Counted from the stretch's first letter, positions 3,291 through 62,228 are shown. The stretch is 64,000 nucleotides of DNA from Vicinamibacterales bacterium (GCA_049679965.1 JBAUGX010000118.1:8064-72063), one strand, 5' to 3'. The notes: generated by a model from the letters alone, not told the origin. Numbers and translations are program-made.

Positions 3291-3296
3291 GCAGGC

Positions 3297-4616
<1,320 letters not shown>

Positions 4617-8369: not shown

Positions 8370-8423
8370 CACCGCTCCGCAATCTGCAGCACGCTGAACA
8401 TGAGGTGTCATACGGGCATACCA

Positions 8424-8439: not shown

Positions 8440-8652
8440 TAGCTCGACTCGAACGGATGAGTGGCCTAAGTGGCTAAAGACAAGAGACTTACAGCAGTTT
8501 GGCGGTTCCGGCATTCCTCCAAGAGTCATCCTGTGGAGAGGCTTAAGATCGCCGTATTTGCTAGAACTGCACACAATTACTCTCTAGTACTACGTTATTG
8601 GGCCTATTGCGTACTGTTTGGTGCTCTATGGTCACTTTGTGCTTGACGTCCG

Positions 8653-42363: not shown

Positions 42364-42426
42364 CGGTGTCCTGGCCAGGGTTTCGAAGGCCCCGAGTGTT
42401 TTGTGGCCAAGGCCACCACGCTCGCC

Positions 42427-42441
42427 CGGCATGTCGTTTGC
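42427..42441 (+). promoter_or_regulatory. candidate sigma54 promoter CGGCAT-N5-TTGC for the cytochrome operon
   Basis: CGGCATGTCGTTTGC has GG-N10-GC spacing and lies about 50-65 nt upstream of the cytochrome c start. A TTTGCC-AGA-GGCAAA palindrome overlaps the -12 box. Confidence 0.5.
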
Positions 42442-42489
42442 CAGAGGCAAACCGGCAATGAAGCGCTGTTGGAGAATCAGGAGGAATGT

Positions 42490-42837
42490 TTGAGTAATAC
42501 GACGATGCCCCGAGCGATTTTCTGCCTGGTGGCGATCATGGCTGCGGCGGGCGCAAGGCTCGCCGCACAGGATGCAAAGGCGAAGGGCGAAAAGTTATTT
42601 GCGGACCAAAAATGTGCCCTTTGCCACTCCGTTGGCGACAAGGGCAACAAGAAAGGCCCGCTCGACGAAGTTGGTCGCAAATTGTCCGCCGCCGAGATCC
42701 GCAATTGGATCGTCGATGCGAAGGCGATGACCGAGAAGACCAAGGCCACGCGAACGCCAGCCATGAAACAGTTCAACTTGAAACAGGCCGAGGTGGACTC
42801 GCTGGTGGCGTACCTTCAGTCGCTCACGGGGAAATGA
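42490..42837 (+). CDS. monoheme c-type cytochrome (class I), secreted
   Basis: One CxxCH motif (CALCH), a signal peptide, and a distal Met region. I prefer TTG at 42490 as the start (AGGAGG RBS at 42479-42484, 5-nt spacer); the alternative is ATG at 42505. Confidence 0.8.
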   Translation: MSNTTMPRAIFCLVAIMAAAGARLAAQDAKAKGEKLFADQKCALCHSVGDKGNKKGPLDEVGRKLSAAEIRNWIVDAKAMTEKTKATRTPAMKQFNLKQAEVDSLVAYLQSLTGK

Positions 42838-42841
42838 AGGG

Positions 42842-43369
42842 GTGAGCACTGAACGGCGGAGGTTCCTCGGGGCGCTCCCGTTTCTCGGTGCGCTCCTGGC
42901 CGTCGGCACGTCGAGCGTGGGCGCGCTGCTGGCCGTGCCGCTGGCCAGGTTCGCCATGCATCCGCTTCGACGCAAGCCGGGCGAAGTGGCGTGGTCCGAT
43001 ATCGGACCCACGGCCGATCTGACTTCGCTTGCCGCGCCCATGAAGATGCTCGTCGAGGTCGAGCAGCGCGATGGCTGGCGGAAGATGATTTCCACCAAGC
43101 CTGTCTACGTGACTCGAACCGCAGAAGGCCGCCTGCGCGTACTGTCCGCCGTTTGCCCGCATCTGGGCTGCAGCGTGGCCTGGAATGAAAGTCAAAAGCG
43201 GTTTCTGTGTCCCTGCCACGTCGGTGTGTTTGCCGAAGATGGCGCGTTGGTATCCGGACCTCCGCCTCGTGGCATGGACGAGCTCGACAGCACGGTTGAA
43301 GACGGCCGTCTGAAAGTGCGCTACCAGTACTTCCGCCAGCTCGTCCCGACGCGGGAGATCATCGCGTGA
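42842..43369 (+). CDS. Rieske [2Fe-2S] subunit of a cytochrome bc-type complex
   Basis: Tat-type N-terminus (RRRFL), and the Rieske boxes CPHLGC and CPCHVG. GTG start 4 nt after the cytochrome c stop. Confidence 0.9.
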   Translation: MSTERRRFLGALPFLGALLAVGTSSVGALLAVPLARFAMHPLRRKPGEVAWSDIGPTADLTSLAAPMKMLVEVEQRDGWRKMISTKPVYVTRTAEGRLRVLSAVCPHLGCSVAWNESQKRFLCPCHVGVFAEDGALVSGPPPRGMDELDSTVEDGRLKVRYQYFRQLVPTREIIA

Positions 43370-44784
43370 GCCGGCTCGTCGACTGGTTGGATCGCCGCAC
43401 CGGACTCCGGCAACTGCTGCGCGAGGCGCTCGGCGAACCGATTCCTGGTGGTGCGCGGCTCGCGTACGTGTTCGGTTCCGGTCTGCTATTCGTGTTTCTG
43501 TCTCAAGTGATCACGGGCGTGTTTCTCGCGCTTTACTACGTCCCATCCGCGGATCACGCCCACGTGACGGTCGCCTATATCGTCAAGGAGGTCGCGTCGG
43601 GATCCTTCCTGCGGAGCCTCCATGCCTACGGCTCGAGCGCCATGATCATCATCGTGCTGCTGCACATGGCGCAAACGCTCGTCTACGGTTCGTACAAAGG
43701 GGCCCGCGAGATCCTCTGGGTGGCCGGATGCGTGCTGTTCGCGCTCGTGCTCGGCATGGCGTTTACCGGCTACCTGCTGCCCTGGGATCAGAAGGCCTAC
43801 TTCGCGACCGCCATAGGCACCAACATCCTTGGCGAGGTGCCGCTGATCGGGGAGTGGCTGCAGCGGCTTGTCCGCGGCGGCGCCGACATGGGCACGCTGA
43901 CCGTCTCGCGGTTCTTTGTCGCTCACGTCTTCCTCATTCCAGCGGCCATCTTCGCGTTCGTCGGCCTTCATGTGTTCCTGTTTCGGAAGGCCGGGCCCGC
44001 CGGCCCGCCGTCGGTCGAGGCGGCCCGTCGGCGGACCGAGTTGTTCTATCCGCGCCAGGTACTGATGGATGTCGGGTTCGCGATGACGATCATCGTCTGC
44101 CTTGGAGTTGTTGCCTGGATGTGGCCGGCCGAGCTCGGGCCAGAGGCCAACGCCGCCGATACGCGCTTCCTGCCGCGGCCGGAGTGGTACTACGTGCCGG
44201 TGTTCCAGTGGCTCAAGTACTGGAAGGGGTCCAGCGCGGTCATTGGGATCGTGATCATCCCGGCGCTGCTGGCGGTGTTTTTCGTCGGGCTGCCGTTCTT
44301 TGACCGGAGCCCGGAGCGGTCCCCGTTGAAGCGCCCCGTCACGGTCGGTGCGTTCGCGGCGGTGCTGCTGTCACTCGCCCTGCTTGGTGTGCTCAGCGTG
44401 CTGGAGGATCGCCGCGACCCGGCGATCGCCCAGCAGTTGACCGCGCAGCGGGAGGCCGATCGGCGGTATACCGCCGAGCCGTTCGCGCCGGAAGAGTCGC
44501 CGGCGTCCCTCAAGACCGCCAAGGCGGCGCTGGTCGATCCCGCCCTCAGTCGCGGCAAGGCCGTGTACGAGGCGCAATCCTGTGATGCCTGTCACGGCGA
44601 TGCCGGGCAGGGCACACCCGGCGCGCCGGCCCTTATCGGCCTTGCTGCCAAGTATCCGGGCGAGGAGATGTCGCGAATCCTCAGGATGCCCACCGCGAAG
44701 ATGACCGACGGTGGGATGATGCCGCTCGATATCTCTGACGATGATCTGAAGGTCCTTGTGGCTTACATGAATGCCTTGAAATGA
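43366..44784 (+). CDS. cytochrome b (b6 plus subunit-IV-like) fused to a C-terminal monoheme cytochrome c domain
   Basis: The cyt b N-terminal four-helix region has conserved His residues. Also present: a PEWY motif (RPEWYYVPVF) and C-terminal CDACHG. The start overlaps the Rieske stop (GTGA). Confidence 0.9.
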   Translation: MSRLVDWLDRRTGLRQLLREALGEPIPGGARLAYVFGSGLLFVFLSQVITGVFLALYYVPSADHAHVTVAYIVKEVASGSFLRSLHAYGSSAMIIIVLLHMAQTLVYGSYKGAREILWVAGCVLFALVLGMAFTGYLLPWDQKAYFATAIGTNILGEVPLIGEWLQRLVRGGADMGTLTVSRFFVAHVFLIPAAIFAFVGLHVFLFRKAGPAGPPSVEAARRRTELFYPRQVLMDVGFAMTIIVCLGVVAWMWPAELGPEANAADTRFLPRPEWYYVPVFQWLKYWKGSSAVIGIVIIPALLAVFFVGLPFFDRSPERSPLKRPVTVGAFAAVLLSLALLGVLSVLEDRRDPAIAQQLTAQREADRRYTAEPFAPEESPASLKTAKAALVDPALSRGKAVYEAQSCDACHGDAGQGTPGAPALIGLAAKYPGEEMSRILRMPTAKMTDGGMMPLDISDDDLKVLVAYMNALK

Positions 44785-45707
44785 GTCCTATGAAACTCAC
44801 TCATCGAGTGTCTGTACGGCTGCTCGTCGCCGGCGCCTGTGCCTGGGCGCTCGTGGCCGGCCTACGCGGGTGGCCGGCGGCCGCTCAGTCCAACGACTAC
44901 GTCGGCACGGCGGCGTGCGTGACGTGCCATGGCACCGAGGGCCAGAGTCTGCAGAGGACGCTGCACGGCAAGACGGCGAACCCCCGGACGCCGGCGGCGA
45001 CCCAGGGCTGCGAGTCGTGTCACGGGCCGGGTCGGGCGCATGTCGAGAGCGGCGGAGAAGCGGACAAGATCAAGCGGTTTACCGCCATGGCGGCCCGGGA
45101 CATCTCAGCGACCTGTCTGACGTGCCACAACCGCGGCAACTATGTGCAGTGGCGGGGCAGCGCCCACGATTCCCGCAACCTTTCGTGTGTGACCTGTCAC
45201 TCGATACATAGCCCGAAGTTGGAGAAGGCGCAGCTCAAGGCCGTGTCGATCACGGCGACCTGCGCGGCCTGCCACAAGACGCAAGTCGCCAAGCTCCAGC
45301 GCTTCGGGCACATGCCGGTTCGTGAAGGCAAGATGGAGTGCTCGGCGTGTCACAACCCGCACGGATCGACCAACGTCCGCTTGCTCAAAATAGGCAACTG
45401 GGTGAACGAGACCTGCGTCAGCTGCCACACCGAGAAGCGCGGTCCGTTCCTGTGGGACCACGTGCCGGTTCGCGAGGCGTGCAACACCTGTCACGATCCA
45501 CACGGCTCGAACAACGAACGGATGCTGGTCGCCAAGCTGCCAATCCTCTGCCAGCGGTGCCACATCGGTACCCGACATCCGTCGACCATCTACGACGGCA
45601 ACCAGCTGGCGGCCCGCAGCGGCCGGCTGATTGGTCGTAGCTGCGTGAACTGTCACGTCCAGATTCACGGCTCGAATAGTCCAGCCGGCCACGCGTTCGT
45701 TCGGTAG
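44781..45707 (+). CDS. periplasmic decaheme c-type cytochrome, MtrA/DmsE/PioA/MtoA family
   Basis: Ten CxxCH motifs counted (CVTCH, CESCH, CLTCH, CVTCH, CAACH, CSACH, CVSCH, CNTCH, CQRCH, CVNCH) in 308 aa with a signal peptide. ATGA overlap with the cytochrome b gene. Confidence 0.9.
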   Translation: MSPMKLTHRVSVRLLVAGACAWALVAGLRGWPAAAQSNDYVGTAACVTCHGTEGQSLQRTLHGKTANPRTPAATQGCESCHGPGRAHVESGGEADKIKRFTAMAARDISATCLTCHNRGNYVQWRGSAHDSRNLSCVTCHSIHSPKLEKAQLKAVSITATCAACHKTQVAKLQRFGHMPVREGKMECSACHNPHGSTNVRLLKIGNWVNETCVSCHTEKRGPFLWDHVPVREACNTCHDPHGSNNERMLVAKLPILCQRCHIGTRHPSTIYDGNQLAARSGRLIGRSCVNCHVQIHGSNSPAGHAFVR

Positions 45708-45709
45708 CG

Positions 45710-47833
45710 TTGAGGACCATGCACATGCGAACCCCGATTCTTCTCATCGTGACCGCGCTTCTCCTGCAGCCCGCGGGCGTGATGGGCCAGGGCCTGCCCG
45801 CCAACTCCATTGATTTCGGCGCCCGGGCCACGGAGTTCGCCGCTGGTTCCGACCAGGCGCGAAGCCGGCGCTATCGAGACTCGCGCGACGGCGTCACACT
45901 CGACGCCTTCACGTTCGCAAAAGACACCGACATGCGACGGTTGAGCCTGCAGGCCAATCATGTCGGGTACCTCGACCAGCACTATGCCGCCGCCTGGAAC
46001 GAGTTCGGACGGTTCAAGCTAACCTTCGACTGGAACCAGATCCCGCTGTTGTTCAGTGAGAGCACCAAGACGCTGTTCTCGACATCGAGAGGCGTGCTGC
46101 GCATCAGCGACGCGATCCAGGCAGGCGTGCAAGCGGGCACCACCACGCTCGACGCAGCGGTCTTGGAGGCGCGGCCCCTCGAACTGCGCCTCAGGCGGGA
46201 CGTCGCCGACTTCAGGGTGACGTACAGCGCGACGGACCACGTCGATTTCAACCTGTCGATCAAGAACGCGACGAAGACTGGAAACCAGCCATGGGGCGGC
46301 AACTTCGGCCAATCCAACGACGTGGAGCTCCCCGTGCCGGTCGATACGAGAACGACGGACCTTGGTGCGGGGATCGAGTGGGCCAACGGGCGGACCTCGG
46401 CGCGCCTGGCGTACGACGGATCGTTCTTCACCAACAACGTCAGCACGCTCGTCTGGGACAATCCGCGTCGCGCGACCGACTCGGCCACCGCGGGACCGTT
46501 CCAGGGCCGGATGGCGATGTGGCCCAACAGCAACATGCACACGGGCAGCGCCACCGGATCGCTGACGCTTCCGGCCCGCAGCCACGCGACGGCGTACATC
46601 TCCGTCGGCGACTGGTCCCAGGACGATCCCCTGATCCCCTTCACGATCAACAGCGCCCTGGCGACGATTCCGCTCGACCGGCCGACGGCGAATGCCGACG
46701 CCCGGGTCACGAGCATGAACTACACGTTCCACTCGAGACCGATCGATCTGGTGTCCTATACCGCGCGCTACCGTTCGTACGAGTTCAAGAACCGGACGCC
46801 CGTCTTCAACTCTCCGACCACTGTGTCCTACGACACGACCGTCGCGGCGTTCGCCAAAGGCGGCACGAGTCCCCTCAGTTACACGCGGCGGACCTTGGAC
46901 GCCGACGTGGTGCTGACGCCCTTCACGTACGGGTCGTTCCGTGCAGGGTATACACGCGAGCAGGTCGATCAGACCGTCCGGTTCTTCGATACCACGACGG
47001 AAGATACATTCCGGGTATCCGCCGACACGACGGCCCTGGCCTGGCTCACGCTGCGCGGCGTCTACGAGCACGCCAAGCGCGTCGGTTCGGGGTTCGACGA
47101 GCTGGCGCTCGACGATATCGGCGAGCAAGTGTCGCTGCGCCAATTTGACATTTCAGATCGCACGTCCAATCGGTTCTCAGGCATTGTGCAGGTTGCGCCT
47201 GTGCCTCTCCCGCAGCTGGCGGTGAACGGGTCGGTGTCGGTCGGCGACGAGGATCGTCCGGGTGCGGGATTTGGCCTTCGAAGCAACGGCAATCACGCGT
47301 ACTCGATCGGCGTGGATTTCGTGCCTCGCGACGAAGTATCGATGGGGGTGACGTTCGGGCGTGAGTGGTATACGGCGCTCCAGGCGTCAAGGCAGGCGAA
47401 TCCGGGCGCGCAGTTCAACGATCCCACGCGGGACTGGACGACCAACAGCACCGACACCGCCCAAACCCTGTCGGCCTCGCTCGATCTGCTCAAGGCGTGG
47501 CCGAAGACCGATGTGCGGATGGCGTACGACTACAGCCGTGCGGAATCACAGTACGTGTATGGCTTGGCGCCCAACAGCACGTTGACGCCCGTCGTGCAAC
47601 TGCCCGTGGTCTCAAACGAGCTGCAGCGCGGCACACTCGACGTCCGGTACCATGTCACGCCGCGGCTGGCTCTTGGCCTTGTCTACTGGTACGACCGCTA
47701 CATCGTCAACGACTTCGCACAGGATCCGCAAAGGTTCACCACCCTCGCGCAGCCGTCGTTGCTGATGATGGGGTACTTCTCGCGTCCCTACACCGCCAAC
47801 ACGGTGTCGGCCCGGCTCACCTATTACTGGTAG
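45710..47833 (+). CDS. MtrB/PioB-family outer-membrane beta-barrel (decaheme-associated porin)
   Basis: Signal peptide, about 700 aa with alternating beta-strand-like pattern, and a C-terminal aromatic end (LTYYW). It sits directly after the decaheme gene. The start is uncertain (TTG 45710, ATG 45719 or ATG 45725). Confidence 0.8.
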   Translation: MRTMHMRTPILLIVTALLLQPAGVMGQGLPANSIDFGARATEFAAGSDQARSRRYRDSRDGVTLDAFTFAKDTDMRRLSLQANHVGYLDQHYAAAWNEFGRFKLTFDWNQIPLLFSESTKTLFSTSRGVLRISDAIQAGVQAGTTTLDAAVLEARPLELRLRRDVADFRVTYSATDHVDFNLSIKNATKTGNQPWGGNFGQSNDVELPVPVDTRTTDLGAGIEWANGRTSARLAYDGSFFTNNVSTLVWDNPRRATDSATAGPFQGRMAMWPNSNMHTGSATGSLTLPARSHATAYISVGDWSQDDPLIPFTINSALATIPLDRPTANADARVTSMNYTFHSRPIDLVSYTARYRSYEFKNRTPVFNSPTTVSYDTTVAAFAKGGTSPLSYTRRTLDADVVLTPFTYGSFRAGYTREQVDQTVRFFDTTTEDTFRVSADTTALAWLTLRGVYEHAKRVGSGFDELALDDIGEQVSLRQFDISDRTSNRFSGIVQVAPVPLPQLAVNGSVSVGDEDRPGAGFGLRSNGNHAYSIGVDFVPRDEVSMGVTFGREWYTALQASRQANPGAQFNDPTRDWTTNSTDTAQTLSASLDLLKAWPKTDVRMAYDYSRAESQYVYGLAPNSTLTPVVQLPVVSNELQRGTLDVRYHVTPRLALGLVYWYDRYIVNDFAQDPQRFTTLAQPSLLMMGYFSRPYTANTVSARLTYYW

Positions 47834-47838: not shown

Positions 47839-50226
47839 TTACGCCTTCGCATTCCGTAGACGCAGGGCGTTGCCGATGACCGACAGCGAGCTGAAGCTCA
47901 TGGCGGCCGCAGCTATGATGGGACTCAGCAGAAGGCCGAATGCTGGATACAACACTCCTGCGGCGATGGGCACGCCCGCCGTGTTGTAGACGAACGCGAA
48001 AAACAGATTCTGTTTGATATTGCGCATCGTCTGCCGCGAGAGCCCGCGCGCCCGCGCGATGCCGCGCAGGTCGCCCTTCACGAGCGTCACGCCCGCGCTC
48101 TCCATCGCGACATCCGTGCCGGTGCCCATCGCAATGCCCACCTGCGCCTGGGCGAGCGCCGGCGCATCGTTGATGCCGTCACCTGCCATCGCGACGATCC
48201 GGCCCTCCGCCTGCAGGCGCTTGATCTTGTCGGCCTTCTGATCCGGCAGCACCTCGGCCATCACTTCGTCGATACCGAGCTTCCGGGCGACCGCCTGGGC
48301 TGTGGCCTGACTGTCTCCGGTCAGCATCACCAGGCGGACGCCGTCCTTGTGAAGTGCCTCGATCGCCTCGGAGGTGCTCTCCTTGATCGGATCGGCCACG
48401 CCAACCAGTCCGGCCGCCTTGCCGTCGATTGCCACGAACATCACCGTTTGCGCATCCGCCCGGAGCTCCTCGGCGCGTCCCACGAGCGATCGCGCCTCGA
48501 CGCCGAGGCTCTCGAACAAGGCCTTGTTCCCCAGTGCCACCTCGCGGCCATCGACGCGCCCCTTCACGCCCTTGCCCGTGATCGACTCGAACCCCTCGGC
48601 GTTGCCCAAGACAAGCCCTCGGGCAAGGGCGCCGTTGACGATGGCGGCCGCGAGCGGGTGCTCGCTCCCTCGCTCGAGGCTGGCGGCCAGGCGAAGGAGC
48701 TCCGCTTCCTTGACGCCTGGCGCGGGGGTGACGCTCACCAGCGTCGGTTTCCCTTCCGTGAGCGTCCCCGTCTTGTCGACGACCAGCGTATCGACCTTGC
48801 GCAGAACCTCGATGGCTTCCGCGTTCCTGAAGAGCACGCCCATCGTTGCGCCTTTGCCTGTCGCCACCATGATCGACATCGGTGTGGCCAGGCCGAGCGC
48901 GCACGGGCAGGCGATGATGAGCACCGCGACGGCATTGATGAGCGCGTGCGCCATGCGAGGCTCTGGCCCGATGAGCGCCCACACCACGAAGGTGGCGATG
49001 GCGACCAGGATGACGATCGGCACGAAGTAGCCAGAGACGACGTCCGCGAGTTTCTGAATGGGCGCTCGGCTGCGCTGCGCCTCGGCGACCATCGCCACGA
49101 TGCGCGCGAGAAGTGTTTCGGCGCCGACCTTCTCCGCGCGGATGATCAGGCCGCCAGTGCCGTTAATCGTCGCGCCGACCACGCGGTCGCCCGCTTGTTT
49201 CTCCACCGGAATGGGCTCGCCGGTGATCATCGACTCGTCCACATGGCTGTGTCCGTCGACCACGACGCCATCGACCGGCACCTTTTCGCCGGGCCGCACG
49301 CGCAGCCGGTCGCCGACTTCAACGATGTCAAGCGGCACGTCTTCCTCGCGTCCATCCGAACGCAGCCGTCGCGCTGTCTTGGGTGTGAGGCCCAGCAGTT
49401 TTCGGATCGCGGAGCTCGTCTGGCTCCTCGCGCGCAACTCGAGCACCTGGCCGAGCAGGATGAGCGTCGTGATGACGGCGGCGGCCTCGAAGTAGACAGC
49501 GACCTCGCCTTGCGCGCGGAACGAATCAGGGAAGACTCCTGGAAAGAGCGTGGCCACGATGCTGTAGATGTAGGACACGCTCACACCGAGCCCGATGAGC
49601 GTGAACATGTTCAGGTTACGGTGGACGACGGATTGCGCGGCCCGTTCGTAGAACGGCCACGCGGCCCAGAGGCACACCGGCGTGGCGAGCGCGAGCTCGA
49701 CGAGCAGACGCGTCCGCATGGACATGACAGACAGCGATCCGACCCCCGGCAGCATGTCGCTCATCACGGAGATGAGGAGAGGCGCCGTCAGGGCCGCCGC
49801 CAGCCAGAAGCGGCGCGTCATGTCCCGCAATTCGGGATTGTCCTCTTCGTCTGCGCTGGTGACGGTGCGGGGCTCGAGCGCCATCCCGCAGAGGGGACAC
49901 GTGCCCGGTCGGTCACTGAGGATCTCGGGGTGCATGGGACACGTGTAGATCCCGCCCGCTGACTGTTTCGGAGTTGTCGTGGGGTCCGCCTTCAGGCGGA
50001 CCTCGGTCCGGCTAAAGCCGGCCCCCACGTACGTCTTGGGGTTGTCGCGGAACTTCGCCAGGCACCCGGCGCAGCAGAACAGATACGTCTCGCCCTCGTA
50101 GTTGAACCGATGAGGACTCTCCGGCTTGACGCGCATCCCGCACACCGGATCGGTTGCCGTCGCTGGAGGAGCGGGCGTGTGCACGTCCGGGTCGGGCGCG
50201 TGATGCTCGTGCGTCATGCCCATCAT
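47839..50226 (-). CDS. copA: copper-translocating P1B-type ATPase
   Basis: N-terminal Cys-rich TRASH/YHS-like region (CGMRV ... FCCAGC) and YTCPMHPE ... CPLCGM. Also the TM CPC motif ([11 protein letters not shown]), DKTGTLT and [10 protein letters not shown]. Confidence 0.95.
49979..50034. repeat. REP-like double-hairpin element lying in frame inside copA
   Basis: On the + strand: GGTCCGCC-TTCA-GGCGGACC (perfect 8-bp stem), then GGTCCGGCT-AA-AGCCGGCCC. In the copA sense it encodes ..[19 protein letters not shown].. between the two N-terminal Cys-rich modules. Confidence 0.75.
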
Positions 50227-50352
50227 TGTCTCCTACACCGCCATTCCCGAGACCTTCAACGTGCCTTTCCGCAAGGCGCGCAACTTGGTCGCGTAGAAGA
50301 CAGGAATGAAGATGATGAAGAGCACACCTAGGGCTGCACCCAGGTGCGAGCG

Positions 50353-50796
50353 TCAGCCGATCGACGCGATGACTCGGCGAAGCCGCTGGTCGGCCTCGTC
50401 AACCACCGGCGTCAGCTCCGGGTTGTCGACGATCCTGAACATCGCCCGTGGATCGGCAATGGACACGACAACTCCGCCGCCTTCGGGCGCCGCTTGCACG
50501 ACGACGTTACACGGAAGGAGCAGGCCGATCTGGGGATCAACGGTGAGCGCCTTGTGAGCGAGGGTCGGGTTGCACGCGCCCAGGATGATATACGGCCGGA
50601 ACTCGGCGTTGAGCTTCTTCTTGAGGGTATCCCTGATGTCGATTGTCGTCAGGACGCCGAATCCTTCGTTCCTGAGCGCCGTCGTGACCCGTGCGACGGC
50701 CTCTTCGACCGTTCCTTGCTCGAGGCGGCGCTCAAATCCATAAGAGACCGGGGAAGCCGCCTTGGGCCGGGCCTTGAGTGAATCGGTGTTCAACAT
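50353..50796 (-). CDS. DUF302-domain protein
   Basis: From the ATG at 50796 (GGAGAGAGG RBS): ...VTTALRNEGFGVLTTIDIRDTLKKKLNAEFRPYIILGACNP ... LPCNVVV, the DUF302 pattern. The upstream 88 aa of the track ORF look non-coding. Confidence 0.8.
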   Translation of the reverse strand: MLNTDSLKARPKAASPVSYGFERRLEQGTVEEAVARVTTALRNEGFGVLTTIDIRDTLKKKLNAEFRPYIILGACNPTLAHKALTVDPQIGLLLPCNVVVQAAPEGGGVVVSIADPRAMFRIVDNPELTPVVDEADQRLRRVIASIG

Positions 50797-51218
50797 GGCG
50801 GTATTCCTCTCTCCGATGCCGCATTCCACTTCTGCACAGATTCCTCGAGAACTTCTCGCGCGTCGGGAGACAGCGGTGTGCTGCCCTGGTCGGGCTTCGC
50901 GAAGAGTTGGACGATCCTGAAGAAACGCAAGCCGCCGAACGCCACCTTGAAGGCAAACTCGGCGTTTCCCGCTCTCACGCCGGGCTCGACATCCTGGATG
51001 TTTCCGAACGCCACGATCCGGCCAGATCCCGGGTCCGCGTACCCGCGCGCGGCCGCGCACGAGTAGAAGCGACCGCCCAGATTCACCCGGCCCGCATTCC
51101 CTCCAAGGGACTCGTTCTTCAAGAGACGGATCATCGGGCCGTTCATCTGCACGAGATTGTGCATGACCGCAGGGTCATCGGCGATAGCCGGGTCCATGAC
51201 TGCAAATCTAGTGGTCAC
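50790..51218 (-). CDS. hypothetical protein
   Basis: 142-aa ORF with reasonable GC3. It overlaps the tonB stop and the DUF302 start by a few nt, which suggests an operon. The opposite-strand ORF is Arg-rich. No family recognised. Confidence 0.5.
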   Translation of the reverse strand: MTTRFAVMDPAIADDPAVMHNLVQMNGPMIRLLKNESLGGNAGRVNLGGRFYSCAAARGYADPGSGRIVAFGNIQDVEPGVRAGNAEFAFKVAFGGLRFFRIVQLFAKPDQGSTPLSPDAREVLEESVQKWNAASERGIPPC

Positions 51219-52053
51219 GTTTCTGTCCTTGGATGCTGAAGTTGAACGTCACGGTCAACACGAACGACACCGGCGTGCCGTTCAAAACGAGCGGGGCGTA
51301 CTGCCACTGCCTGAGTGCGTCGATGGCGGCGTTGTCGAGCAGGGGATGACGCGACCGCAAGACCTTGATCGATTCGACACAACCGGTCTTGTCCACAACG
51401 GCTTCGAGAATGACCAGCCCGGTTATCTGCATGACTGACGCGACGCTCGGGTAGACAGGCTCGACGCGGTGGATGAGTGATGGCTCGTGAACCAGTCCGC
51501 CGATTCGCACGGGTGCGTCGGGTGCCTTGGCTGCCGGCGGCGGAGGCGGAGCCTCGGACACGAGGCCACCGACGATCCCGCCAATCGTTCCACCCGGGAC
51601 TCCGCCTTCAACACCGCCTTCAACGCCAGCGACGGTCGTGGCATGGCCGGCATCAGGCTCGGGCGGTCGCACCTCAGGTGGCGCCTCAACCGGTGCCGCC
51701 GCTTCGGCGGTCGGAGCCGGCTTCGGGCGTGACTCAACCGCCCGAGGGGGTCTGGGCGCTGCGGGCGCTGGCGGTGGAGGCGGTGGAGCGGGCGGCGGAG
51801 CCACGAACGCCATCATCCTGGGTGCCGTGGGCAACACCCTGACGCCTTCAGTCATGGCGATAGCGACAACGCCGCCAACGACAGCCGCGTGGAGTGCAAA
51901 AGCCAAGGCCTTCGAGATCGGAGAACGCTCCCGAAGCGGTCGCTCGGTTGTCCCGATAACCAGGTCGAACATACGAAGAAAAAGTGCAGGAACTGCGCCA
52001 GTCAGAAGTCCGTTCGGGAGAGGCTGTTCACGGTGTTTTGACGCCAGGCCCAC
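51208..52053 (-). CDS. tonB: energy transducer TonB
   Basis: N-terminal TM segment, a Pro-rich spacer (PPPAPPPPPPAPAAPRPP), and the C-terminal TonB domain (EPVYPSVASVMQITGLVILEAVVDKTGCV ... LRQWQYAP). The start may be Met28 (51972). Confidence 0.9.
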   Translation of the reverse strand: MGLASKHREQPLPNGLLTGAVPALFLRMFDLVIGTTERPLRERSPISKALAFALHAAVVGGVVAIAMTEGVRVLPTAPRMMAFVAPPPAPPPPPPAPAAPRPPRAVESRPKPAPTAEAAAPVEAPPEVRPPEPDAGHATTVAGVEGGVEGGVPGGTIGGIVGGLVSEAPPPPPAAKAPDAPVRIGGLVHEPSLIHRVEPVYPSVASVMQITGLVILEAVVDKTGCVESIKVLRSRHPLLDNAAIDALRQWQYAPLVLNGTPVSFVLTVTFNFSIQGQKRDH

Positions 52054-52073
52054 AGGGCGAAGGGATTGCCGGG

Positions 52074-52105
52074 GGGACTATTCCGCGAGACCGCGGGATA
52101 GTCCG
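52074..52105. promoter_or_regulatory. 32-bp palindromic enhancer-like element, copy 2 (13-6-13)
   Basis: GGGACTATTCCGC-GAGACC-GCGGGATAGTCCG. It has the same architecture as 42332-42363, and its centre lies about 81.5 bp upstream of the GG of the promoter at 52170. Confidence 0.6.
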
Positions 52106-52169
52106 CGCTATGCCTTGACGCGCCGCCTGAACCCGAGCGTTGTGCGGGTCAGATAGCCATCTTCACGCG

Positions 52170-52184
52170 TGGCACATCGCTTGC
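52170..52184 (+). promoter_or_regulatory. candidate sigma54 promoter TGGCAC-N5-TTGC (consensus) for the MgtC/ATPase operon
   Basis: TGGCACATCGCTTGC lies 46 nt upstream of the ATG at 52230. Confidence 0.65.
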
Positions 52185-52229
52185 CGTTTATGGCCATCGA
52201 CGCGCTCAACGGGCAATACTGAACACGTA

Positions 52230-53468
52230 ATGGAACTTCTCCCTGCCGGCATCATCGTGGCCGCGCTCGGCGGCTTGGCGATTGGCGTCGAGCGGCAGTG
52301 GTCCGGTCATGCGACTGGTCCGCGCGCCCGATTTGCGGGCATCCGGACGTTCACTCTACTCGGCGCGGTCGGAGGTGTCGCCGGCTGGTTGTGGACGCAG
52401 CAGGTCTATGCGCTGGCGACCGTCCTGCTGGCGGCTGGCGCGGCACTCGTGGTCGCCGCCTACATTGCTGCAAGCCGGGCCGAAGTCGATGGCACGACCG
52501 AGGTCGGCGCCATCGTCGTCCTCGGCACGGGCGCGCTGTCTGGCCTCGGTCATATCACGCTCGCGAGCGGCATTGTCGCGGTCACGACGCTCATTCTGCT
52601 CGAGAAGTCTCGTCTGCACGCGTTCGTCGAGCGCCTCGATGATGAGGAGCTGCGGGCGGCGGCACGATTCGCCGTGATGGCGGTCGTCGTGCTGCCGCTC
52701 TTGCCGGCCGGCCCGTACGGGCCGCTCGGCGGCGTTCGGCCGCGCGACATCTGGCTGCTGGTGCTCTTCGTCTCCGGGCTGAGCTTTGCCGGCTACATCG
52801 CCCGCCGCGCCATCGGCGCGAGCCGCGGCTACCCGTTGGCGGGTCTCCTTGGCGGCCTGGTCTCGTCCACCAACGTGACGCTCATGTTCTCCCGCGCGAG
52901 CCGCGACTCGCGCCAGGCCCGCATACCGCTGGCCTACGGCGTTGTGGCGGCGTGCACCGTCTTGTTTGTTCGCGTGGCCATCACCGTGTCGGTCCTCAAC
53001 TCGAGCCTCGCGTGGACGCTGCTGCCGTATCTCGGTCCGCCGTTCGTCGTGGGCGTACTGATTCTGGCGACTGGCTTCCACGATGCGCGCCATGAGCCGA
53101 CACACCTCGACGTGCCCACCAACCCGTTGCAGATCGGCGCGGCCCTGCAGATGGCCGCCATGTTTCAGGCCGTGTTGTTCGCGGTCGATCTGATGCGCCG
53201 GTTCTGGGGCGATGCCGGCGTTATCGTGTCGGGCGCCGTGCTGGGGCTGACCGACATGGACGCGTTGACGATCGCGATGGCACGCGGCGCGTCCTCCGGC
53301 ATCCCGCTCGAGGTTGCGGCGCGCGCCGTCGCGACAGGCATTCTGGCGAACACGGCGCTGAAGCTCGCCCTGGCTGTGGTCATCGGCCGTGCCCGGTTCA
53401 GGCGTGTGGTCGGAGCAAGCCTGGCCGCCATCGGCCTGGCGATTGGCGCGTCGCTGGCGCTTCAGTGA
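52230..53468 (+). CDS. MgtC/SapB-family plus DUF4010 membrane protein
   Basis: From the ATG at 52230: LGGLAIGVERQWSGH ... AGIRTFTLLG (MgtC-like N-terminus), followed by about 10 further TM segments. Confidence 0.75.
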   Translation: MELLPAGIIVAALGGLAIGVERQWSGHATGPRARFAGIRTFTLLGAVGGVAGWLWTQQVYALATVLLAAGAALVVAAYIAASRAEVDGTTEVGAIVVLGTGALSGLGHITLASGIVAVTTLILLEKSRLHAFVERLDDEELRAAARFAVMAVVVLPLLPAGPYGPLGGVRPRDIWLLVLFVSGLSFAGYIARRAIGASRGYPLAGLLGGLVSSTNVTLMFSRASRDSRQARIPLAYGVVAACTVLFVRVAITVSVLNSSLAWTLLPYLGPPFVVGVLILATGFHDARHEPTHLDVPTNPLQIGAALQMAAMFQAVLFAVDLMRRFWGDAGVIVSGAVLGLTDMDALTIAMARGASSGIPLEVAARAVATGILANTALKLALAVVIGRARFRRVVGASLAAIGLAIGASLALQ

Positions 53469-55357
53469 AGGACTATTCCACGAGGTTGGCAGTGCTAGGC
53501 TCTCTGCCGGTGAGGTTCTGGCGTGACTCGAATGCGCTGATTGCCTTCCTGAGTCTCGCCGGTATCCTCGTCCACCTCACCCTGCGGTATCTGGTCCCAG
53601 CCGGGTCGTCCGGCCTGGCCACGAATCTGCCTCTGCTCATCGTGCTCGCCGTCGGCGGGTCCCTCCTTGTGGTGCGCCTGGCCTGGCGGGCCATTCGCGG
53701 CCAGTTCGGGGCCGATCACCTCGCCGGGATTTCGATCGTGGCGTCGGTCCTGCTCGAGGAGTACCTCGCGGGCGCGATCGTGGTGCTGATGCTGGCCGGC
53801 GGGGAAACGCTCGAAGGCTACGCCGTCGCCGAGGCGACCTCGGTGCTGCGCGCCCTGGCGAGCCGCGTCCCGACGCTTGCGCATCGCCGGCGCGGGACGG
53901 GCTTCGAAGACGTACCGGTGGCCGACATCGCCGTTGGCGAAGAACTCTCCGTCCTCCCTCATGAAATCTGCCCAGTGGACGGCGAAGTGGTTCAAGGTCA
54001 CGGGACGATGGACGAGTCGTACCTGACTGGCGAGCCGTTCAATATTTCCAAAGGTCCTGGCGCGTCCGTCCTGTCCGGCGCCATCAACGGCGAGGCGGCG
54101 CTCGCGATTCGCGCCACTCGCGCCGCCGCCGACAGCCGCTACGCCCAGATCATGCAGGTCATGCAGGAGGCCGAGCAGCGGCGTCCGAGGCTCCGCCGCA
54201 TCGGTGATCAGCTCGGCGCGTGGTACACACCACTGGCCGTCGGGCTGGGCTTGGGCGCGTGGTGGTGGTCTGGAAACCCTCTACGCTTCCTGAGCGTTGT
54301 CGTCGTGGCGACGCCGTGTCCGTTGCTGATCGCCATCCCCGTTGCCATCATCGGCGCCATTTCCTCGGCCGCGCGGCGGAGCGTGATCATCAAAGACCCG
54401 GCAGCCCTCGAGCAGCTGGCGCGCTGCCACACCATGATTTTCGACAAGACCGGGACGCTGACCTTGGGGCGTCCCAGCCTGAGTGACGAGCTGTATGCGC
54501 CGCCCTTCACCCGCGAGACCGTCCTGCCGGCCGTTGCGGCGATGGAGCAGTACAGCCGTCATCCCCTGGCCGCCGCCATCGCGCAGGTCGCGGCGGACGG
54601 CAAGCATGCGCTGCCGGCCGTCGAATGGATTCGCGAAGAGCCGGGCGTGGGCTTGCACGGCAAGGTGGGCGACCGGTCCATACTGATCACCAATCGGACG
54701 CACGCGGCCAGCCGGTTCGAGTTGCCGCCGAGCCAGCCGACGGGTCTCGAATGCGTGGTCATCATCGATGATCGCTACGCGGCAGTCTATCGATTCCACG
54801 ACGTGCCACGGCCCGACAGCCGAGGGTTCGTCAAGCACCTGGGCCCGAAACACGGGTTTACCCGCGTGCTCGTCGTCTCTGGCGATCGCGAGGCCGAGGT
54901 CAGGAGGCTGGCCGACCTGATGGCGATCACGCACATCTACGCCGAGATGTCGCCAGAGGAGAAGGTCGCGATCGTCCGCGAGGAAACAAGACGCGCGGGA
55001 ACGTTGTTTATTGGAGACGGCATCAACGACGCGCCGGCCTTGATGACGGCCACCGTGGGGATCGCGTTCGGGCTGCACAGCGATGTGACCACTGAGGCCG
55101 CACGTGTGGTCATCATCGACAGCTCGCTGTCGAAGGTCGATGAGCTCATTCACATCAGTCTTCGTCTCCGGCGGGTCGCGTTGCAGAGCGTGGTTGGCGG
55201 CATGGCCCTGAGCGGCGCCGGCATGATGTTCGCGGCCTTTGGCCTGCTGTCGCCGGTTGCCGGGGCGGTGTTTCAGGAGGTGATCGATCTGTTCGCCGTC
55301 CTCAACGCCCTGCGCATGACGCGGCCCGCCCGAGTACGGACCGACTTCGAGCGCTAG
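53465..55357 (+). CDS. heavy-metal P1B-type ATPase with a TPCP transmembrane motif and no N-terminal metal-binding domain
   Basis: [31 protein letters not shown], and the TGEP actuator motif (LTGEPFNI). GTGA overlap with the upstream gene. Confidence 0.9.
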   Translation: MKDYSTRLAVLGSLPVRFWRDSNALIAFLSLAGILVHLTLRYLVPAGSSGLATNLPLLIVLAVGGSLLVVRLAWRAIRGQFGADHLAGISIVASVLLEEYLAGAIVVLMLAGGETLEGYAVAEATSVLRALASRVPTLAHRRRGTGFEDVPVADIAVGEELSVLPHEICPVDGEVVQGHGTMDESYLTGEPFNISKGPGASVLSGAINGEAALAIRATRAAADSRYAQIMQVMQEAEQRRPRLRRIGDQLGAWYTPLAVGLGLGAWWWSGNPLRFLSVVVVATPCPLLIAIPVAIIGAISSAARRSVIIKDPAALEQLARCHTMIFDKTGTLTLGRPSLSDELYAPPFTRETVLPAVAAMEQYSRHPLAAAIAQVAADGKHALPAVEWIREEPGVGLHGKVGDRSILITNRTHAASRFELPPSQPTGLECVVIIDDRYAAVYRFHDVPRPDSRGFVKHLGPKHGFTRVLVVSGDREAEVRRLADLMAITHIYAEMSPEEKVAIVREETRRAGTLFIGDGINDAPALMTATVGIAFGLHSDVTTEAARVVIIDSSLSKVDELIHISLRLRRVALQSVVGGMALSGAGMMFAAFGLLSPVAGAVFQEVIDLFAVLNALRMTRPARVRTDFER

Positions 55358-56839: not shown

Positions 56840-57787
56840 CTAGAGAAACGTCGTCGACGCGAGCCCGCGAAGGCCCGCCTTGAGCGCCGATGGACCGCGC
56901 GGACGGAACCGGCTCGGAAGGGCTACGACCGGCACGAGCCCCTGGCAGAGCACCTGATACGTGATCGACCCGGGACGCGGGCCGAACACGCCGCGCGCGC
57001 CTCGCAGGACGAGCACGATCAGTCCAATGCGCAGACGGACCGCCTCGGCCGAGATCGAATTCGCGGGGTCGCCGACGAGCACGCAGTGTTCGGCGTGGAC
57101 CCGAGGGCCAAGCCTCGCCATGAGGTGTTCGAGCTGTCTACGCGCTTTGGCCACGCGACGGCCTTCAGAGTCGCTGGGACGCACCCGGAACCAGGACGGC
57201 GCCTGCAGGTCCGGCAGGACGTGGACCAGTAGCAAGGCCGCCCCGAAACCACGTGCAAATTCTGAGGCGGCGCGTGCGTCCGACCTCGCATGAGCGCCGA
57301 GCTCGATTCCCGCGAGAAACCGGTGCCCGGGCCAGGAGGACGGCGGCGTTCTCGCGGCGCCGCCCGGCACGGCCAGAACGGGTACCGTGGCACGCCTCAG
57401 CACCTCACGTGTCGTCGATCCGAAAAAGAGCCGCTTCGGGCCGCGGAGGCCGTGCGTGCCCATCACCACCATGTCGGCGCGACGGCGTTTGGCAACCTTC
57501 TCGATCTCGCGTGCCGGTACACCGAGCGACACCACGTAATCGACAGACCGGGCACGTGTTCCTCCGATCGCGTGGTTGACGAAGCGACGCAGTTCTCTCG
57601 TCGAGGTTCTCGCGAGCGCGCTGCGGTCGTAACCGATGGCGGCGGATGCGAGCAACAGGTCCTCCACGAACAGCACCGTGAGCCGTCCCTGGAACTGTCC
57701 GGCCAGTGCGGCGGCGTACCTGAGCGCCCGACGCGAGGACTCCGAGAAGTCAACCGGGCACAACACCCGCAAAACATGGCGCTTCAT
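56840..57787 (-). CDS. tandem universal stress protein (2 x UspA domain)
   Basis: From the ATG at 57787 the first domain reads VLCPVDFSESS ... MVVMGTHGLRGPKRLFFGSTTREVLRRATVPVLAV. A second Usp-like half follows. ATGA overlap with the acd stop. The rest of the 544-aa track ORF is out-of-frame overlap with acd. Confidence 0.8.
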   Translation of the reverse strand: MKRHVLRVLCPVDFSESSRRALRYAAALAGQFQGRLTVLFVEDLLLASAAIGYDRSALARTSTRELRRFVNHAIGGTRARSVDYVVSLGVPAREIEKVAKRRRADMVVMGTHGLRGPKRLFFGSTTREVLRRATVPVLAVPGGAARTPPSSWPGHRFLAGIELGAHARSDARAASEFARGFGAALLLVHVLPDLQAPSWFRVRPSDSEGRRVAKARRQLEHLMARLGPRVHAEHCVLVGDPANSISAEAVRLRIGLIVLVLRGARGVFGPRPGSITYQVLCQGLVPVVALPSRFRPRGPSALKAGLRGLASTTFL

Positions 57788-59973: not shown

Positions 59974-60454
59974 GCGCGTCTGGCAGGACGAACTCGTGCT
60001 CGGGATGATGCACGGTCAGCACCGGACACGGTGCCGTGCGGACGACGCGCTCGGCGACGCTCCCCATGAACAAGCGGGCGAGCCCGGCTCGCCCATGCGT
60101 GCCGATTACCACCAGATCGACGTTGTTGTTCTTCGCGTACTCCACAATCGACTGGGCCGGCCCGATCGACGTCAGCACGTCGCTCTTCGTGCGGATCGGC
60201 GGCCGGTCGTTGTCGATCAGCCGTTCGTCGAGTTGCTTTCGCGCGGCGTCTTCGATGTCGCGCTGCAGATCGGGCAGAAGCATGACGTAGCTCTCCCCGC
60301 CAAGACCGGCATTCCGCATCATCACGTTCTCGGCGACGTGGACCACGTGCAGCGTGGCGCCGAAGGTGCGGGCGAGTGTGCGACCGTACGCCAGCGCAGC
60401 GTCCGCGGCTTCACCGAAATCGGTGGCCACGAGGATGTTGTTCATCTGAATCAT
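59951..60454 (-). CDS. universal stress protein UspA
   Basis: From the ATG at 60454 (GGAGGG RBS): ILVATDFGEAADAAL ... DLVVIGTHGRAGLARLFMGSVAERVVRTAPCPVLTV. Confidence 0.85.
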   Translation of the reverse strand: MIQMNNILVATDFGEAADAALAYGRTLARTFGATLHVVHVAENVMMRNAGLGGESYVMLLPDLQRDIEDAARKQLDERLIDNDRPPIRTKSDVLTSIGPAQSIVEYAKNNNVDLVVIGTHGRAGLARLFMGSVAERVVRTAPCPVLTVHHPEHEFVLPDALVATAKA

Positions 60455-60487
60455 GATGCCCTCCTGGAAGCCATGCCCGCGGAAACA

Positions 60488-60502
60488 GCATGCTCTGTGC
60501 CA
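60488..60502 (-). promoter_or_regulatory. candidate sigma54 promoter TGGCAC-N5-ATGC for the usp-acd-usp operon
   Basis: The reverse complement reads TGGCACAGAGCATGC, about 34 nt upstream of the ATG at 60454. A GCTCCA-GCGCT-TGGAGC palindrome (60575-60591) is centred about 82 bp upstream. Confidence 0.55.
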
Positions 60503-60600
60503 CAGTGGATTTTTACCCGATTGCGTGAAATTCCCCAAACTGTTCGGATTCCCGCCGCCTGCGGTAAGCTCACTGCTCCAGCGCTTGGAGCTCTCCCCAC

Positions 60601-61677: not shown

Positions 61678-61805
61678 ACAGCACCTGAGCTTGGCGCGAC
61701 TCTTGAAACGCCGCGAGCACGTGCGTGGAGACCTCGTTGATCGCCAATTCGCCAGTTGAAAGAACCGGAGGAGCCGAGCCGGAAGGCGCGCCGAATAATT
61801 CCCAT

Positions 61806-62198
61806 ATGGCGAAAAAACCCCCGTCCCTGCGGGTGCTCGTCGTTGACGACGAGCCGCTGATTCGCTGGTCCCTGTCCGAGACACTCTCGGGCTCCGGTCA
61901 TTTCGTCATCGAAGCATCCGATGGTGAAGCAGCCGTGCGCGTCCTTTCCGACGGCCAAGAACCCGTGGACGTCGTCGTGCTCGACTATCGTCTGCCGGAT
62001 TCGAACGACCTGACCTTGCTGGCGACGCTTCGGCGGCTGGCGCCCCTGGCACAGGTCATCATGATGACCGCCTTCGGCACAGCGGACGTCGTCAGCGGGG
62101 CGCTCAGTCTGGGCGCCTATCGCGTCGTGCCAAAGCCGTTTGAAATGCACGACATGGCCGCGCTCGTCCTCCAAGCCCACGCCGCCCGCCCGCACTAG
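61806..62198 (+). CDS. single-domain response regulator (CheY-like)
   Basis: VLVVDDEPLIRWSL ... VVVLDYRLPDSN ... MMTAF ... VVPKPF has all the canonical residues. It is a close paralogue of the receiver domain of the next gene. I prefer the ATG at 61806. Confidence 0.85.
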   Translation: MAKKPPSLRVLVVDDEPLIRWSLSETLSGSGHFVIEASDGEAAVRVLSDGQEPVDVVVLDYRLPDSNDLTLLATLRRLAPLAQVIMMTAFGTADVVSGALSLGAYRVVPKPFEMHDMAALVLQAHAARPH

Positions 62199-62228
62199 AC
62201 TTCAGATTTCCTGCATATACTAGCGTTC

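Follow-up and report, generated by a model that had tools for sequence, protein, structure and literature searches.

How a conduit across the outer membrane is connected to the quinone pool is the question raised by a five-gene operon from a Vicinamibacterales bacterium (GCA_049679965.1, JBAUGX010000118.1:8064-72063). Conduits of the MtrAB/MtoAB type are the best-understood route by which Gram-negative bacteria trade electrons with minerals. The part of this route that is least settled is the link with the quinone pool, which decides direction as well as energy yield. The complete stretch of 64,000 nucleotides was analyzed (the 64-kb window), and all positions are counted from its first letter. 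In the operon (42505-47833, + strand), the genes for a Rieske/cytochrome b complex are joined to those for an MtrA-type decaheme cytochrome and an MtrB-type porin. The first-pass annotation, made from the DNA sequence alone, had proposed a self-contained route that links the quinone pool with an extracellular electron donor or acceptor via a dedicated bc-type complex. This view is supported by comparison with related gene clusters, in which the Rieske/cytochrome b genes occupy the position of another quinol dehydrogenase, and by the separate clade formed by their cytochrome b. The route probably allows respiratory electrons to be traded with redox partners outside the cell, such as iron or manganese.

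The operon was read from an open reading frame (ORF) listing and directly from the sequence, and its genes were assigned by hidden Markov model (HMM) scans and motif reading. The first gene codes for a monoheme class I cytochrome c (42505..42837; PF00034, 45.8 bits). It is followed by the gene for a Rieske [2Fe-2S] subunit with a twin-arginine translocation (Tat) signal (42842..43369; PF00355, 44.4 bits) and by that for a cytochrome b with a C-terminal monoheme c domain (43366..44784; PF00033, 162.5 bits; PF00032, 39.6 bits; PF00034, 40.6 bits). The last two genes code for a periplasmic decaheme cytochrome of the MtrA/DmsE/MtoA type (44781..45707; TIGR03508) and for an outer-membrane beta-barrel of the MtrB/PioB type (45710..47833; PF11854). 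All five are on the + strand. The stop codon of the cytochrome c gene and the GTG of the Rieske gene are separated by 4 nt, the Rieske and cytochrome b genes overlap by 4 nt (GTGA), as do the cytochrome b and decaheme genes (ATGA), and a gap of 2 nt precedes the barrel gene. We infer that the five genes are co-transcribed and that their products assemble physically. An adjacency of the bc complex to mtrAB that is due to chance was considered and dropped, since the overlaps, the conservation over divergent loci and the separate cytochrome b clade (see below) speak against it.

The tightly spaced gene set and the end of the operon are as given in the first-pass annotation. Its start was placed too far upstream: position 42490 is an in-frame TTG, an alternative start 15 nt before the ATG at 42505 from which the cytochrome c is most likely translated. 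In the corresponding operons of two related loci (L007 and L031; loci related to the window are numbered with L throughout), AGGAGG directly precedes the cytochrome c ATG. In the window, the AGGAGG is instead followed by ATG-TTT-GAG-TAA (42478-42507). This is a mini-ORF of three codons (42487-42498), with the cytochrome c start 15-18 nt beyond. It could have arisen by a small insertion, reflect a shift of the start codon or encode a leader peptide. The operon is flanked by a gene for an AI-2E transporter (upstream) and a convergent gene for a CopA-like ATPase (downstream), both of which are unrelated to it.

The decaheme cytochrome (308 aa) has a signal peptide and exactly ten CxxCH motifs. 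It passes the DmsE-family model TIGR03508 (264.9 bits, cut-off 192.2), and phmmer aligns its residues 41-305 with residues 62-330 of MtrA (6R2Q chain A) at an E-value of 7.5e-59. It should be mentioned that 6R2Q chain A carries the molecule name "Cystathionine beta-synthase" in the source file. This annotation slip could mislead automated naming. The barrel protein (707 aa) is devoid of cysteine and ends with YYW. It matches PF11854 (MtrB_PioB) with 284.7 bits (cut-off 23) over profile positions 4-635 of 635, and on the stricter TIGR03509 its score is slightly under the cut-off (222.4 bits, cut-off 240.05). The proposed MtrA/DmsE assignment is thus borne out by its profile, and the MtrB/PioB assignment by the broader of two profiles. 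A sequence search of the barrel against solved structures (PDB) gave no match at E-values up to 1. A first AlphaFold2 model, based on 18 sequences, was weak, with a predicted local distance difference test score (pLDDT) of 54.6, and MtrB was already its top fold match. The model obtained with an alignment of 120 sequences has a pLDDT of 83.8, a predicted template-modeling score (pTM) of 0.75 and about 26 long strands. With this model, Foldseek lists MtrB (6R2Q_B) first (E-value 4.6e-35, template-modeling (TM) scores 0.80/0.86, root mean square deviation 3.9 Å, 701 columns). The next matches are 22-strand TonB-dependent receptors with TM scores of at most 0.42. On the basis of the model, the barrel has the MtrB fold, in agreement with the first-pass annotation, and it would sheathe the decaheme cytochrome. 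The genes for the two proteins are paired in essentially all related loci with enough contig.

The cytochrome c has a signal peptide, one heme motif (CALCH) and a conserved Met in RxPxMK. The Rieske protein has a Tat motif (RRRFLG), a membrane anchor and the boxes CPHLGC and CPCHVGVF. In the HMM scan, it stays below the equivalog cut-offs of the b6f and bc1 Rieske models. Motif comparison shows that the boxes lack the Ser and Tyr hydrogen-bond donors. Such hydrogen bonds are known to affect the potential of bc1 Rieske proteins, and because the donors are lacking, we predict a low-potential Rieske center of the menaquinol type. The cytochrome b (472 aa) has seven hydrophobic segments, the His pairs H86-X13-H100 and H187-X14-H202, and PEWY at position 272. 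In one polypeptide, it combines an N-terminal half of the b6 type with a half resembling subunit IV and a cytochrome c domain (CDACH). The c domain comes after the seventh transmembrane segment and should therefore be periplasmic. The protein scores 199.8 bits with NF002990 (cytochrome b6) and 192.8 bits with NF040969 (ExtP, cut-off 290). It has the b6-type trait H-X14-H on helix D. Because an N-terminal Cys for heme ci is absent, it is not of the b6f/Firmicutes ci type. With two bis-His heme sites on helices B and D, the PEWY motif of the Qo site, the Rieske boxes and the fused c domain, which would be the c-type subunit that accepts electrons from the Rieske center, the complex belongs to the bc1/b6f superfamily.

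An ORF scan across the 64-kb window found no ORF with more than one CxxCH motif other than the decaheme gene. As had been noted before, there is thus no gene for a surface decaheme lipoprotein of the MtrC/OmcA type, and none was seen in the inspected related loci either.

The closest homologs come from metagenome-assembled genomes (MAGs) of Vicinamibacteria/Vicinamibacterales, which supports a Vicinamibacteria-type acidobacterium as the source and agrees with the initial attribution to the Acidobacteriota. Homologs of the barrel number in the hundreds (56-87% identity) and originate from soil, aquifer and lake metagenomes, some of them labelled Vicinamibacterales. A census with one genome per GTDB species resulted in 79 loci, nearly all from MAGs of Vicinamibacteria/Vicinamibacterales or unclassified Acidobacteriota. 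Their neighborhoods were typed by tblastn searches of the window proteins and of related-locus proteins against all loci. The most frequent neighbor of orthologous cytochrome c and mtrAB genes is a protein of about 440 aa (39 of 79 loci, e.g., L009, L010, L014, L016 and L019), encoded upstream of mtrA in 29 loci and downstream of mtrB in ten. It has two to three N-terminal transmembrane helices, one CX3CH and five CX2CH motifs, and an NrfH-like domain (an example is encoded in L001, 5668-6987). We refer to it as ImcH-like, since it matches the architecture described for ImcH homologs, to which it is likened by description (PMC6295460; bioRxiv 10.1101/2023.05.03.539133). A survey from 2018 had found no mtrAB next to imcH (PMC6295460). 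The arrangement of the window (cytochrome c, Rieske protein, cytochrome b/c, decaheme cytochrome, MtrB), for which a neighborhood survey had been suggested, is found in four of the 79 loci (L007, L031, L037 and L068). Neither inner-membrane module is adjacent in 16 loci, and the contig is too short to tell in the remaining 20.

Including metagenome loci (L086, L087 and L089-L094), the five-gene string recurs in independent loci with MtrB identities from 83% down to about 32%. Because the ImcH-like enzyme sits there in the relatives, the Rieske/cytochrome b pair fills the quinol dehydrogenase slot (X) of a cluster cytc-[X]-mtrA-mtrB. Judged by gene order, the operon is a rare variant of a gene cluster that is common in related organisms. 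One locus (L095, 619-7900) has the genes for cytochrome c, the ImcH-like protein, the Rieske protein, cytochrome b/c, the decaheme cytochrome and MtrB in one same-strand string. This string could represent an intermediate stage in evolution or a system for two potentials.

Some observations on individual loci should be mentioned. Several contigs with Vicinamibacteria-type MtrB have GTDB labels that name Gram-positive taxa: L010, L034 ("Bifidobacteriaceae") and L083 ("Nonomuraea"), as well as L033, L058, L059 and L076 ("Acidimicrobiia"). They are probably mis-binned or wrongly labelled. In L005 (MtrB 69% identical; regions 1-3338, - strand, and 7053-10133, + strand), mtrAB lacks a partner in the operon. 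About 4 kb away, there are genes for a cytochrome c, a nine-heme cytochrome, an FdnI-like diheme cytochrome b and a NapC/NirT-like protein, which together correspond to a split CbcL-like module. In L084 (5206-6840, - strand), an ORF of 544 aa fuses a Rieske domain to a cytochrome b that is devoid of a heme c motif. Such fusions (35-39% identity to the cytochrome b of the window) also occur in L021, L023, L026 and L034. The fusion gene is divergent from the genes for cytochrome c, the ImcH-like protein and MtrAB.

The fusion of cytochrome b with a c domain is, as such, the standard acidobacterial type (4,680 matches in more than 120 clusters at >=60% identity, including Bryobacteraceae). This would fit a shared cytochrome c hub, in which the Rieske/cytochrome b complex is the quinol:cytochrome c oxidoreductase of ordinary respiration and MtrAB a side branch for input or output. 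Co-encoding would then reflect the shared carrier and not an obligatory chain from the bc complex to MtrA. The redox-tuning residues of the Rieske protein, which do not differ systematically between mtrAB-linked and stand-alone versions in our motif comparison, are in line with such a hub; since they are alike, they give no clue to direction either. We nevertheless consider a hub improbable. The context of the bc genes was sampled in 80 metagenome loci and by three context look-ups. When cytochrome b is at least 69% identical and the contig is long enough, the decaheme and MtrB genes come after it (9 of 9). At identities of 68% or less, the loci with sufficient room (about 47) are stand-alone Rieske/cytochrome b-c operons. 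In a neighbor-joining tree, the mtrAB-linked cytochrome b genes group together in one clade, which is almost exclusive to mtrAB loci and set apart from the stand-alone complexes. A pair nested in this clade (L102/L103) is of uncertain classification, with its upstream region truncated. The cytochrome c of the operon is also of the mtrAB-cluster type: its orthologs (48-75% identity, with the Met conserved) head bc-type and ImcH-type clusters alike, and the cytochrome c of stand-alone bc operons has no match to it. Judged by this distribution, it is a shuttle common to all mtrAB cluster types of the lineage. Further points against a hub are that the bc genes sit exactly in the slot of a quinol dehydrogenase for extracellular electron transfer (EET) that is dispensable in relatives, that L095 retains both modules, and that 4-nt overlaps tie cytochrome b to mtrA. 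The Rieske/cytochrome b complex is therefore best read, as far as genes and trees can tell, as the dedicated quinone-pool partner of the conduit.

On the MtrB and decaheme trees, bc-type operons are polyphyletic, being scattered among those of the ImcH type. The operon in L031 illustrates this. Its cytochrome b and Rieske protein are 91% and 93% identical to those of the window, while its MtrB is only 45% identical. Because the linked cytochrome b clade is scattered over the MtrB tree, the inner-membrane module has been swapped repeatedly. This indicates that a dedicated bc complex, a specialized paralog of the usual acidobacterial one, has moved between mtrAB clusters, where it alternates or co-exists with the ImcH-like module.

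A different association was seen in other Acidobacteriota, as in L157 (2409-8407), where a bc operon of the stand-alone type is preceded by genes for an MtrA-like decaheme cytochrome (320 aa, 35-37% identity) and a secreted protein of 824 aa. The arrangement is also found in L099, L100, L135, L140 and L152. The 824-aa protein has no Pfam match and ends in RYAF. It was tried as an MtrB homolog and ruled out at the sequence level, having no significant profile similarity to the MtrB alignment. The set may be a second, unrecognised porin-cytochrome module that is linked to a bc complex.

The first-pass annotation had placed the architecture outside the standard models. This was overstated, since similar links are known from Candidatus Zixibacteria RBG-1 (2013) and from the ext/Cbc5 genes of Geobacter. 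The Mtr cluster of RBG-1 codes for MtrA, MtrB, two monoheme cytochromes, further multiheme cytochromes and PetAB, and was interpreted as serving mixotrophic Fe(II) oxidation (Castelle et al. 2013, PMC3903129). Compared by described gene content, it likewise unites Mtr with a Rieske/cytochrome b pair, lacks an extracellular cytochrome and is known from genome evidence only. It differs by its several multiheme cytochromes from the minimal string of five overlapping or closely spaced genes with a cytochrome b-c fusion that is found here in another phylum. In Geobacter sulfurreducens, extHIJKLMNOPQS codes for the conduit ExtHIJKL and for Cbc5, with the Rieske protein ExtO and the cytochrome b ExtP (PMC5877670). 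Here too, the genes of a porin-cytochrome module are accompanied by those for a Rieske protein and a cytochrome b resembling b6, but the porin ExtI and its cytochromes are not homologs of MtrAB, and the cluster also comprises 10- and 12-heme cytochromes, a rhodanese and a selenoprotein. The cytochrome b of the window, which stays below the ExtP cut-off (see above), has a related architecture and belongs to another family. What is new is a compact five-gene version of a known type of system, not a new category.

Other systems share parts of the arrangement. In the Gallionellaceae species of culture KS, mtoAB is followed by cytc1, cytc2 and "Cytbc" (He et al. 2017, PMC5566968). As in the window, the conduit genes are accompanied by genes for small cytochromes c in the periplasm and for a b-c fusion protein in the inner membrane, for which a link to the quinone pool was proposed, but the b domain is of the cytochrome b561 type with a diheme c, and there is neither a Rieske protein nor a Q-cycle architecture. 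With MtrCAB and CymA of Shewanella, the operon has in common the homology to MtrA, the MtrB fold and a heme wire insulated by a 26-strand porin. It differs in that MtrC is missing and the barrel lacks a CXXC, in that the quinol module is a Rieske/cytochrome b pair within the operon and not an unlinked tetraheme CymA, and in that the periplasmic carrier is a monoheme cytochrome c and not a multiheme one (STC or FccA). Surveys of mtrCAB and of quinol oxidases report no Rieske/cytochrome b partners (PMC8805035; PMC6295460). Our literature search found no paper naming both Vicinamibacteria and MtoA. The only one found to name Vicinamibacteria together with MtrB lists mtrA/mtrB homologs in Acidobacteria, including Luteitalea pratensis (PMC5900883).

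With regard to direction, we give a probability of roughly 0.45 to an outward flow of electrons from menaquinol to an extracellular acceptor of high potential. The Rieske/cytochrome b complex would exchange electrons with the membrane quinone pool (probably menaquinone), its fused c domain would pass them to the soluble monoheme cytochrome c as periplasmic carrier, and the latter would serve the ten-heme MtrA-type wire, which would be threaded through the 26-strand MtrB-type porin and cross the outer membrane. Upon O2 limitation, menaquinol would be oxidized by the bc complex with proton translocation in a Q-cycle, and electrons would exit via MtrAB. Their acceptor would be soluble or positioned very close by and would have a fairly high potential, as is the case for Mn(III/IV), chelated Fe(III) and the like. 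The bc variant would be a higher-yield alternative to the electroneutral ImcH-like enzyme. Counted in favor of outward flow is the native direction of bc complexes, in which quinol is the donor and cytochrome c the acceptor. Characterized ImcH is an electroneutral menaquinol oxidase that is needed for high-potential acceptors (bioRxiv 10.1101/2023.05.03.539133; PMC6295460). The dominant ImcH-type cluster fits outward flow best, because an electroneutral enzyme of the NapC/NirT type cannot be driven uphill into menaquinone. Geobacter, a specialist in outward flow, has joined a Rieske protein (ExtO) and a cytochrome b (ExtP) to a porin-cytochrome cluster (PMC5877670). It has several potential-specific quinol oxidases, one of which is under the control of a response regulator (RR)-sigma54 activator (bioRxiv 10.1101/2021.04.15.440034). 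Recurrent neighbors of the related clusters are genes for Usp proteins, PAS kinases, sigma-54 activators, a hibernation factor and an ADP-forming acetyl-CoA synthetase, which suggest a response to hypoxia or energy stress. From general bc biochemistry, outward flow through a low-potential Rieske center would only be feasible with an acceptor whose potential exceeds about +100 mV by a good margin, e.g., Mn(III/IV) or chelated Fe(III).

Several points weigh against outward flow. A Met is conserved in each of the two c-type carriers, and they are probably class I cytochromes with His/Met ligation. Their potential is usually higher than that of bis-His decahemes, so that the step from cytochrome c to MtrA would be uphill. 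They resemble the carriers of Fe(II) oxidizers (MtoD and Cyc1). The absence of a surface cytochrome of the MtrC type is a hallmark of MtoAB/PioAB and limits the access to solid acceptors. Menaquinone as the sole quinone is presumed from species descriptions. Finally, the common Vicinamibacteria cluster (cytochrome c, hexaheme protein of the NapC/NirT family, MtrA, MtrB) corresponds part for part to the Mto cluster (mtoD-cymA-mtoA-mtoB, with cymA also named imoA) of Sideroxydans lithotrophicus ES-1. Both have a decaheme-in-porin conduit without MtrC, a monoheme class I cytochrome c and an inner-membrane quinone module. Differences are the Rieske/cytochrome b-c complex, which in the window takes the place of the NapC/NirT-family enzyme, and the conserved Met of the cytochrome c, where MtoD, by description, has His/His ligation. 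The host of the window belongs to another phylum, probably uses menaquinone instead of ubiquinone, and is not a known lithoautotroph.

The same observations fit an inward flow, which we regard as possible though rather unlikely. MtrAB would take electrons from soluble Fe(II) or another reduced donor, the cytochrome c would deliver them to a terminal oxidase for energy, and the Rieske/cytochrome b complex would be reversed by the proton-motive force to feed part of them into the quinone pool. The replacement of ImcH by the bc complex would make uphill quinone reduction possible in a menaquinone organism. This resembles the petI bc1 complex of Acidithiobacillus and current models for neutrophilic iron oxidizers. 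In Acidithiobacillus ferrooxidans, too, the petI operon (cycA1-sdrA1-petA1B1C1) provides a second bc complex that is reserved for an electron pathway of extracellular metal and co-encoded with a c-type cytochrome of its own. This is, however, a true bc1 complex in which cytochrome c1 is a separate subunit; Cyc2, the outer-membrane component, is encoded outside the operon, and the complex has been shown to serve uphill flow at acid pH. A class I monoheme cytochrome c as conserved first gene is reminiscent of MtoD beside mtoAB (PMC8805035; PMC10654088), and for the Mtr and PetAB genes of RBG-1 the same reasoning was applied (PMC3903129). In published models of electron uptake, bc1 or alternative complex III (ACIII), working in reverse, is the entry to the quinone pool. 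Among the modules described here, only the bc complex would be able to reduce menaquinone with the proton-motive force. Also, the barrel is devoid of the N-terminal CXXC of Shewanella-type metal-reducer MtrB, and only one of 71 barrel relatives has a CxxC within the first 150 residues. In the Gammaproteobacteria, this motif is regarded as significant for the MtrB of metal reducers.

On the other side, the usual occupant of the slot is ImcH/NrfH-like and cannot use the proton-motive force, and its characterized relatives oxidize quinol. An aerobic Fe(II) oxidizer would route most of its electrons around the bc complex, but in the operon the translation of cytochrome b is coupled to that of mtrA. 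Among the flanking genes of the window, no oxidase gene was seen within or close to the operon. We know of no need for reverse electron flow in the cultured Vicinamibacteria, which are aerobic organoheterotrophs. The initial lean towards Fe(II) oxidation or electron uptake was based only on the absence of MtrC and is not upheld, as the ImcH-like protein, being the usual partner, points outward at least as much: those members of its family that have been characterized serve metal reducers as quinol oxidases.

We tentatively speculate, with more doubt than conviction, that the inner-membrane module sets the use of the MtrAB wire and that Vicinamibacteria swap this module by recombination. The ImcH-like version would be an electroneutral outlet for excess reducing power and the Rieske/cytochrome b version a conduit coupled to the proton-motive force. 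If so, the latter would allow energy-conserving respiration of high-potential acceptors such as Mn(III/IV) or, alternatively, electron uptake from Fe(II) or minerals into the menaquinone pool, driven by the proton-motive force. It would be the first Q-cycle complex that is hard-wired to an outer-membrane conduit, and soil Acidobacteria considered as aerobic heterotrophs would be unrecognised players in Mn/Fe redox cycling. The usual view of Vicinamibacteria, which are among the most abundant Acidobacteria in soil and aquifers, is that of simple aerobic heterotrophs. If the conduit is functional, their role in Fe/Mn cycling and their survival under anoxic conditions would have to be seen differently. 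Relatives with the ImcH-like module, with both modules or with neither represent a natural, isogenic-like series for testing how the inner-membrane partner tunes EET.

A block of metal-handling genes lies directly downstream of the operon (47839-55357). It codes for the CopA-like P-type ATPase with YHS and HMBD domains (47839-50226, - strand), a DUF302 protein, TonB, an MgtC/DUF4010 protein and a second P-type ATPase of the heavy-metal type (53465-55357). Genes for DUF302, TonB and Usp proteins also recur close to related mtrAB clusters (L005 and L087). The block would fit a non-respiratory role of the operon in metal detoxification or redox sensing. Alternatively, the electrons might be destined for a terminal enzyme that is encoded elsewhere and located outside the cell or in the periplasm. 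DmsEF supplies dimethyl sulfoxide reductase in this manner, and DmsE is indeed the best curated family of the decaheme cytochrome. Both options are very unlikely, given that neither the window nor any of the inspected related loci has a reductase gene alongside, and that the metal-ATPase neighborhood is not conserved across the related loci.

Control of the operon by sigma-54, which had been raised as a possibility, is no more than plausible. A scan for sigma-70 promoters revealed no promoter-like site. Behind the AI-2E transporter gene, the hairpin scan found a terminator-like hairpin followed by a T-run (GGGTTTCGAAGGCCC, 42378..42392, + strand). It probably marks the upstream limit of the control region, though it is weak alone, with four terminator-like sites found and 3.3 expected. 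Just past it, and 63 nt before the ATG, is the only candidate sigma-54 -24/-12 element upstream of the operon (CGGCATGTCGTTTGCC, 42427..42442, + strand). It has the correct GG-N10-GC spacing and three mismatches to TGGCAC-N5-TTGCW; matches with up to two mismatches occur in the window at chance level (29 found, 24 expected). When the three closest operons are aligned, TGGTCCTTCAATTGCT is at the equivalent position in L031, and L007 has one extra spacer base. Best-site scans across 13 orthologous upstream regions did not find a consistent element; beyond L031 and L007, it is weak or lacking.

Candidate regulators, linked to the operon by inference only, are encoded 12-15 kb downstream (59951-63596): a Usp protein (59951-60538, - strand), a PAS histidine kinase (60601-61677, + strand), a receiver protein (61725-62198, + strand) and an NtrC-type sigma-54 activator (62229-63596, + strand). 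The same gene set directly adjoins related mtrAB clusters in L001, L002, L004 and L086. A precedent comes from Geobacter, where BccR, an RR-sigma54 activator, is required for the bc-type quinol oxidase CbcBA (bioRxiv 10.1101/2021.04.15.440034). The window codes for three sigma-54 enhancer-binding proteins (8653-9819, 14249-15703 and 62229-63596), the first of which lacks a receiver domain. Because sigma-54 regulation is evidently common in this genome, a specific link to the operon is weakened. Beside the regulator set, a gene for an ADP-forming acetyl-CoA synthetase (729 aa) adjoins the Usp gene (57784-60538, - strand). The synthetase, the Usp protein and the PAS kinase/activator set are suggestive of a module for hypoxia or energy stress.

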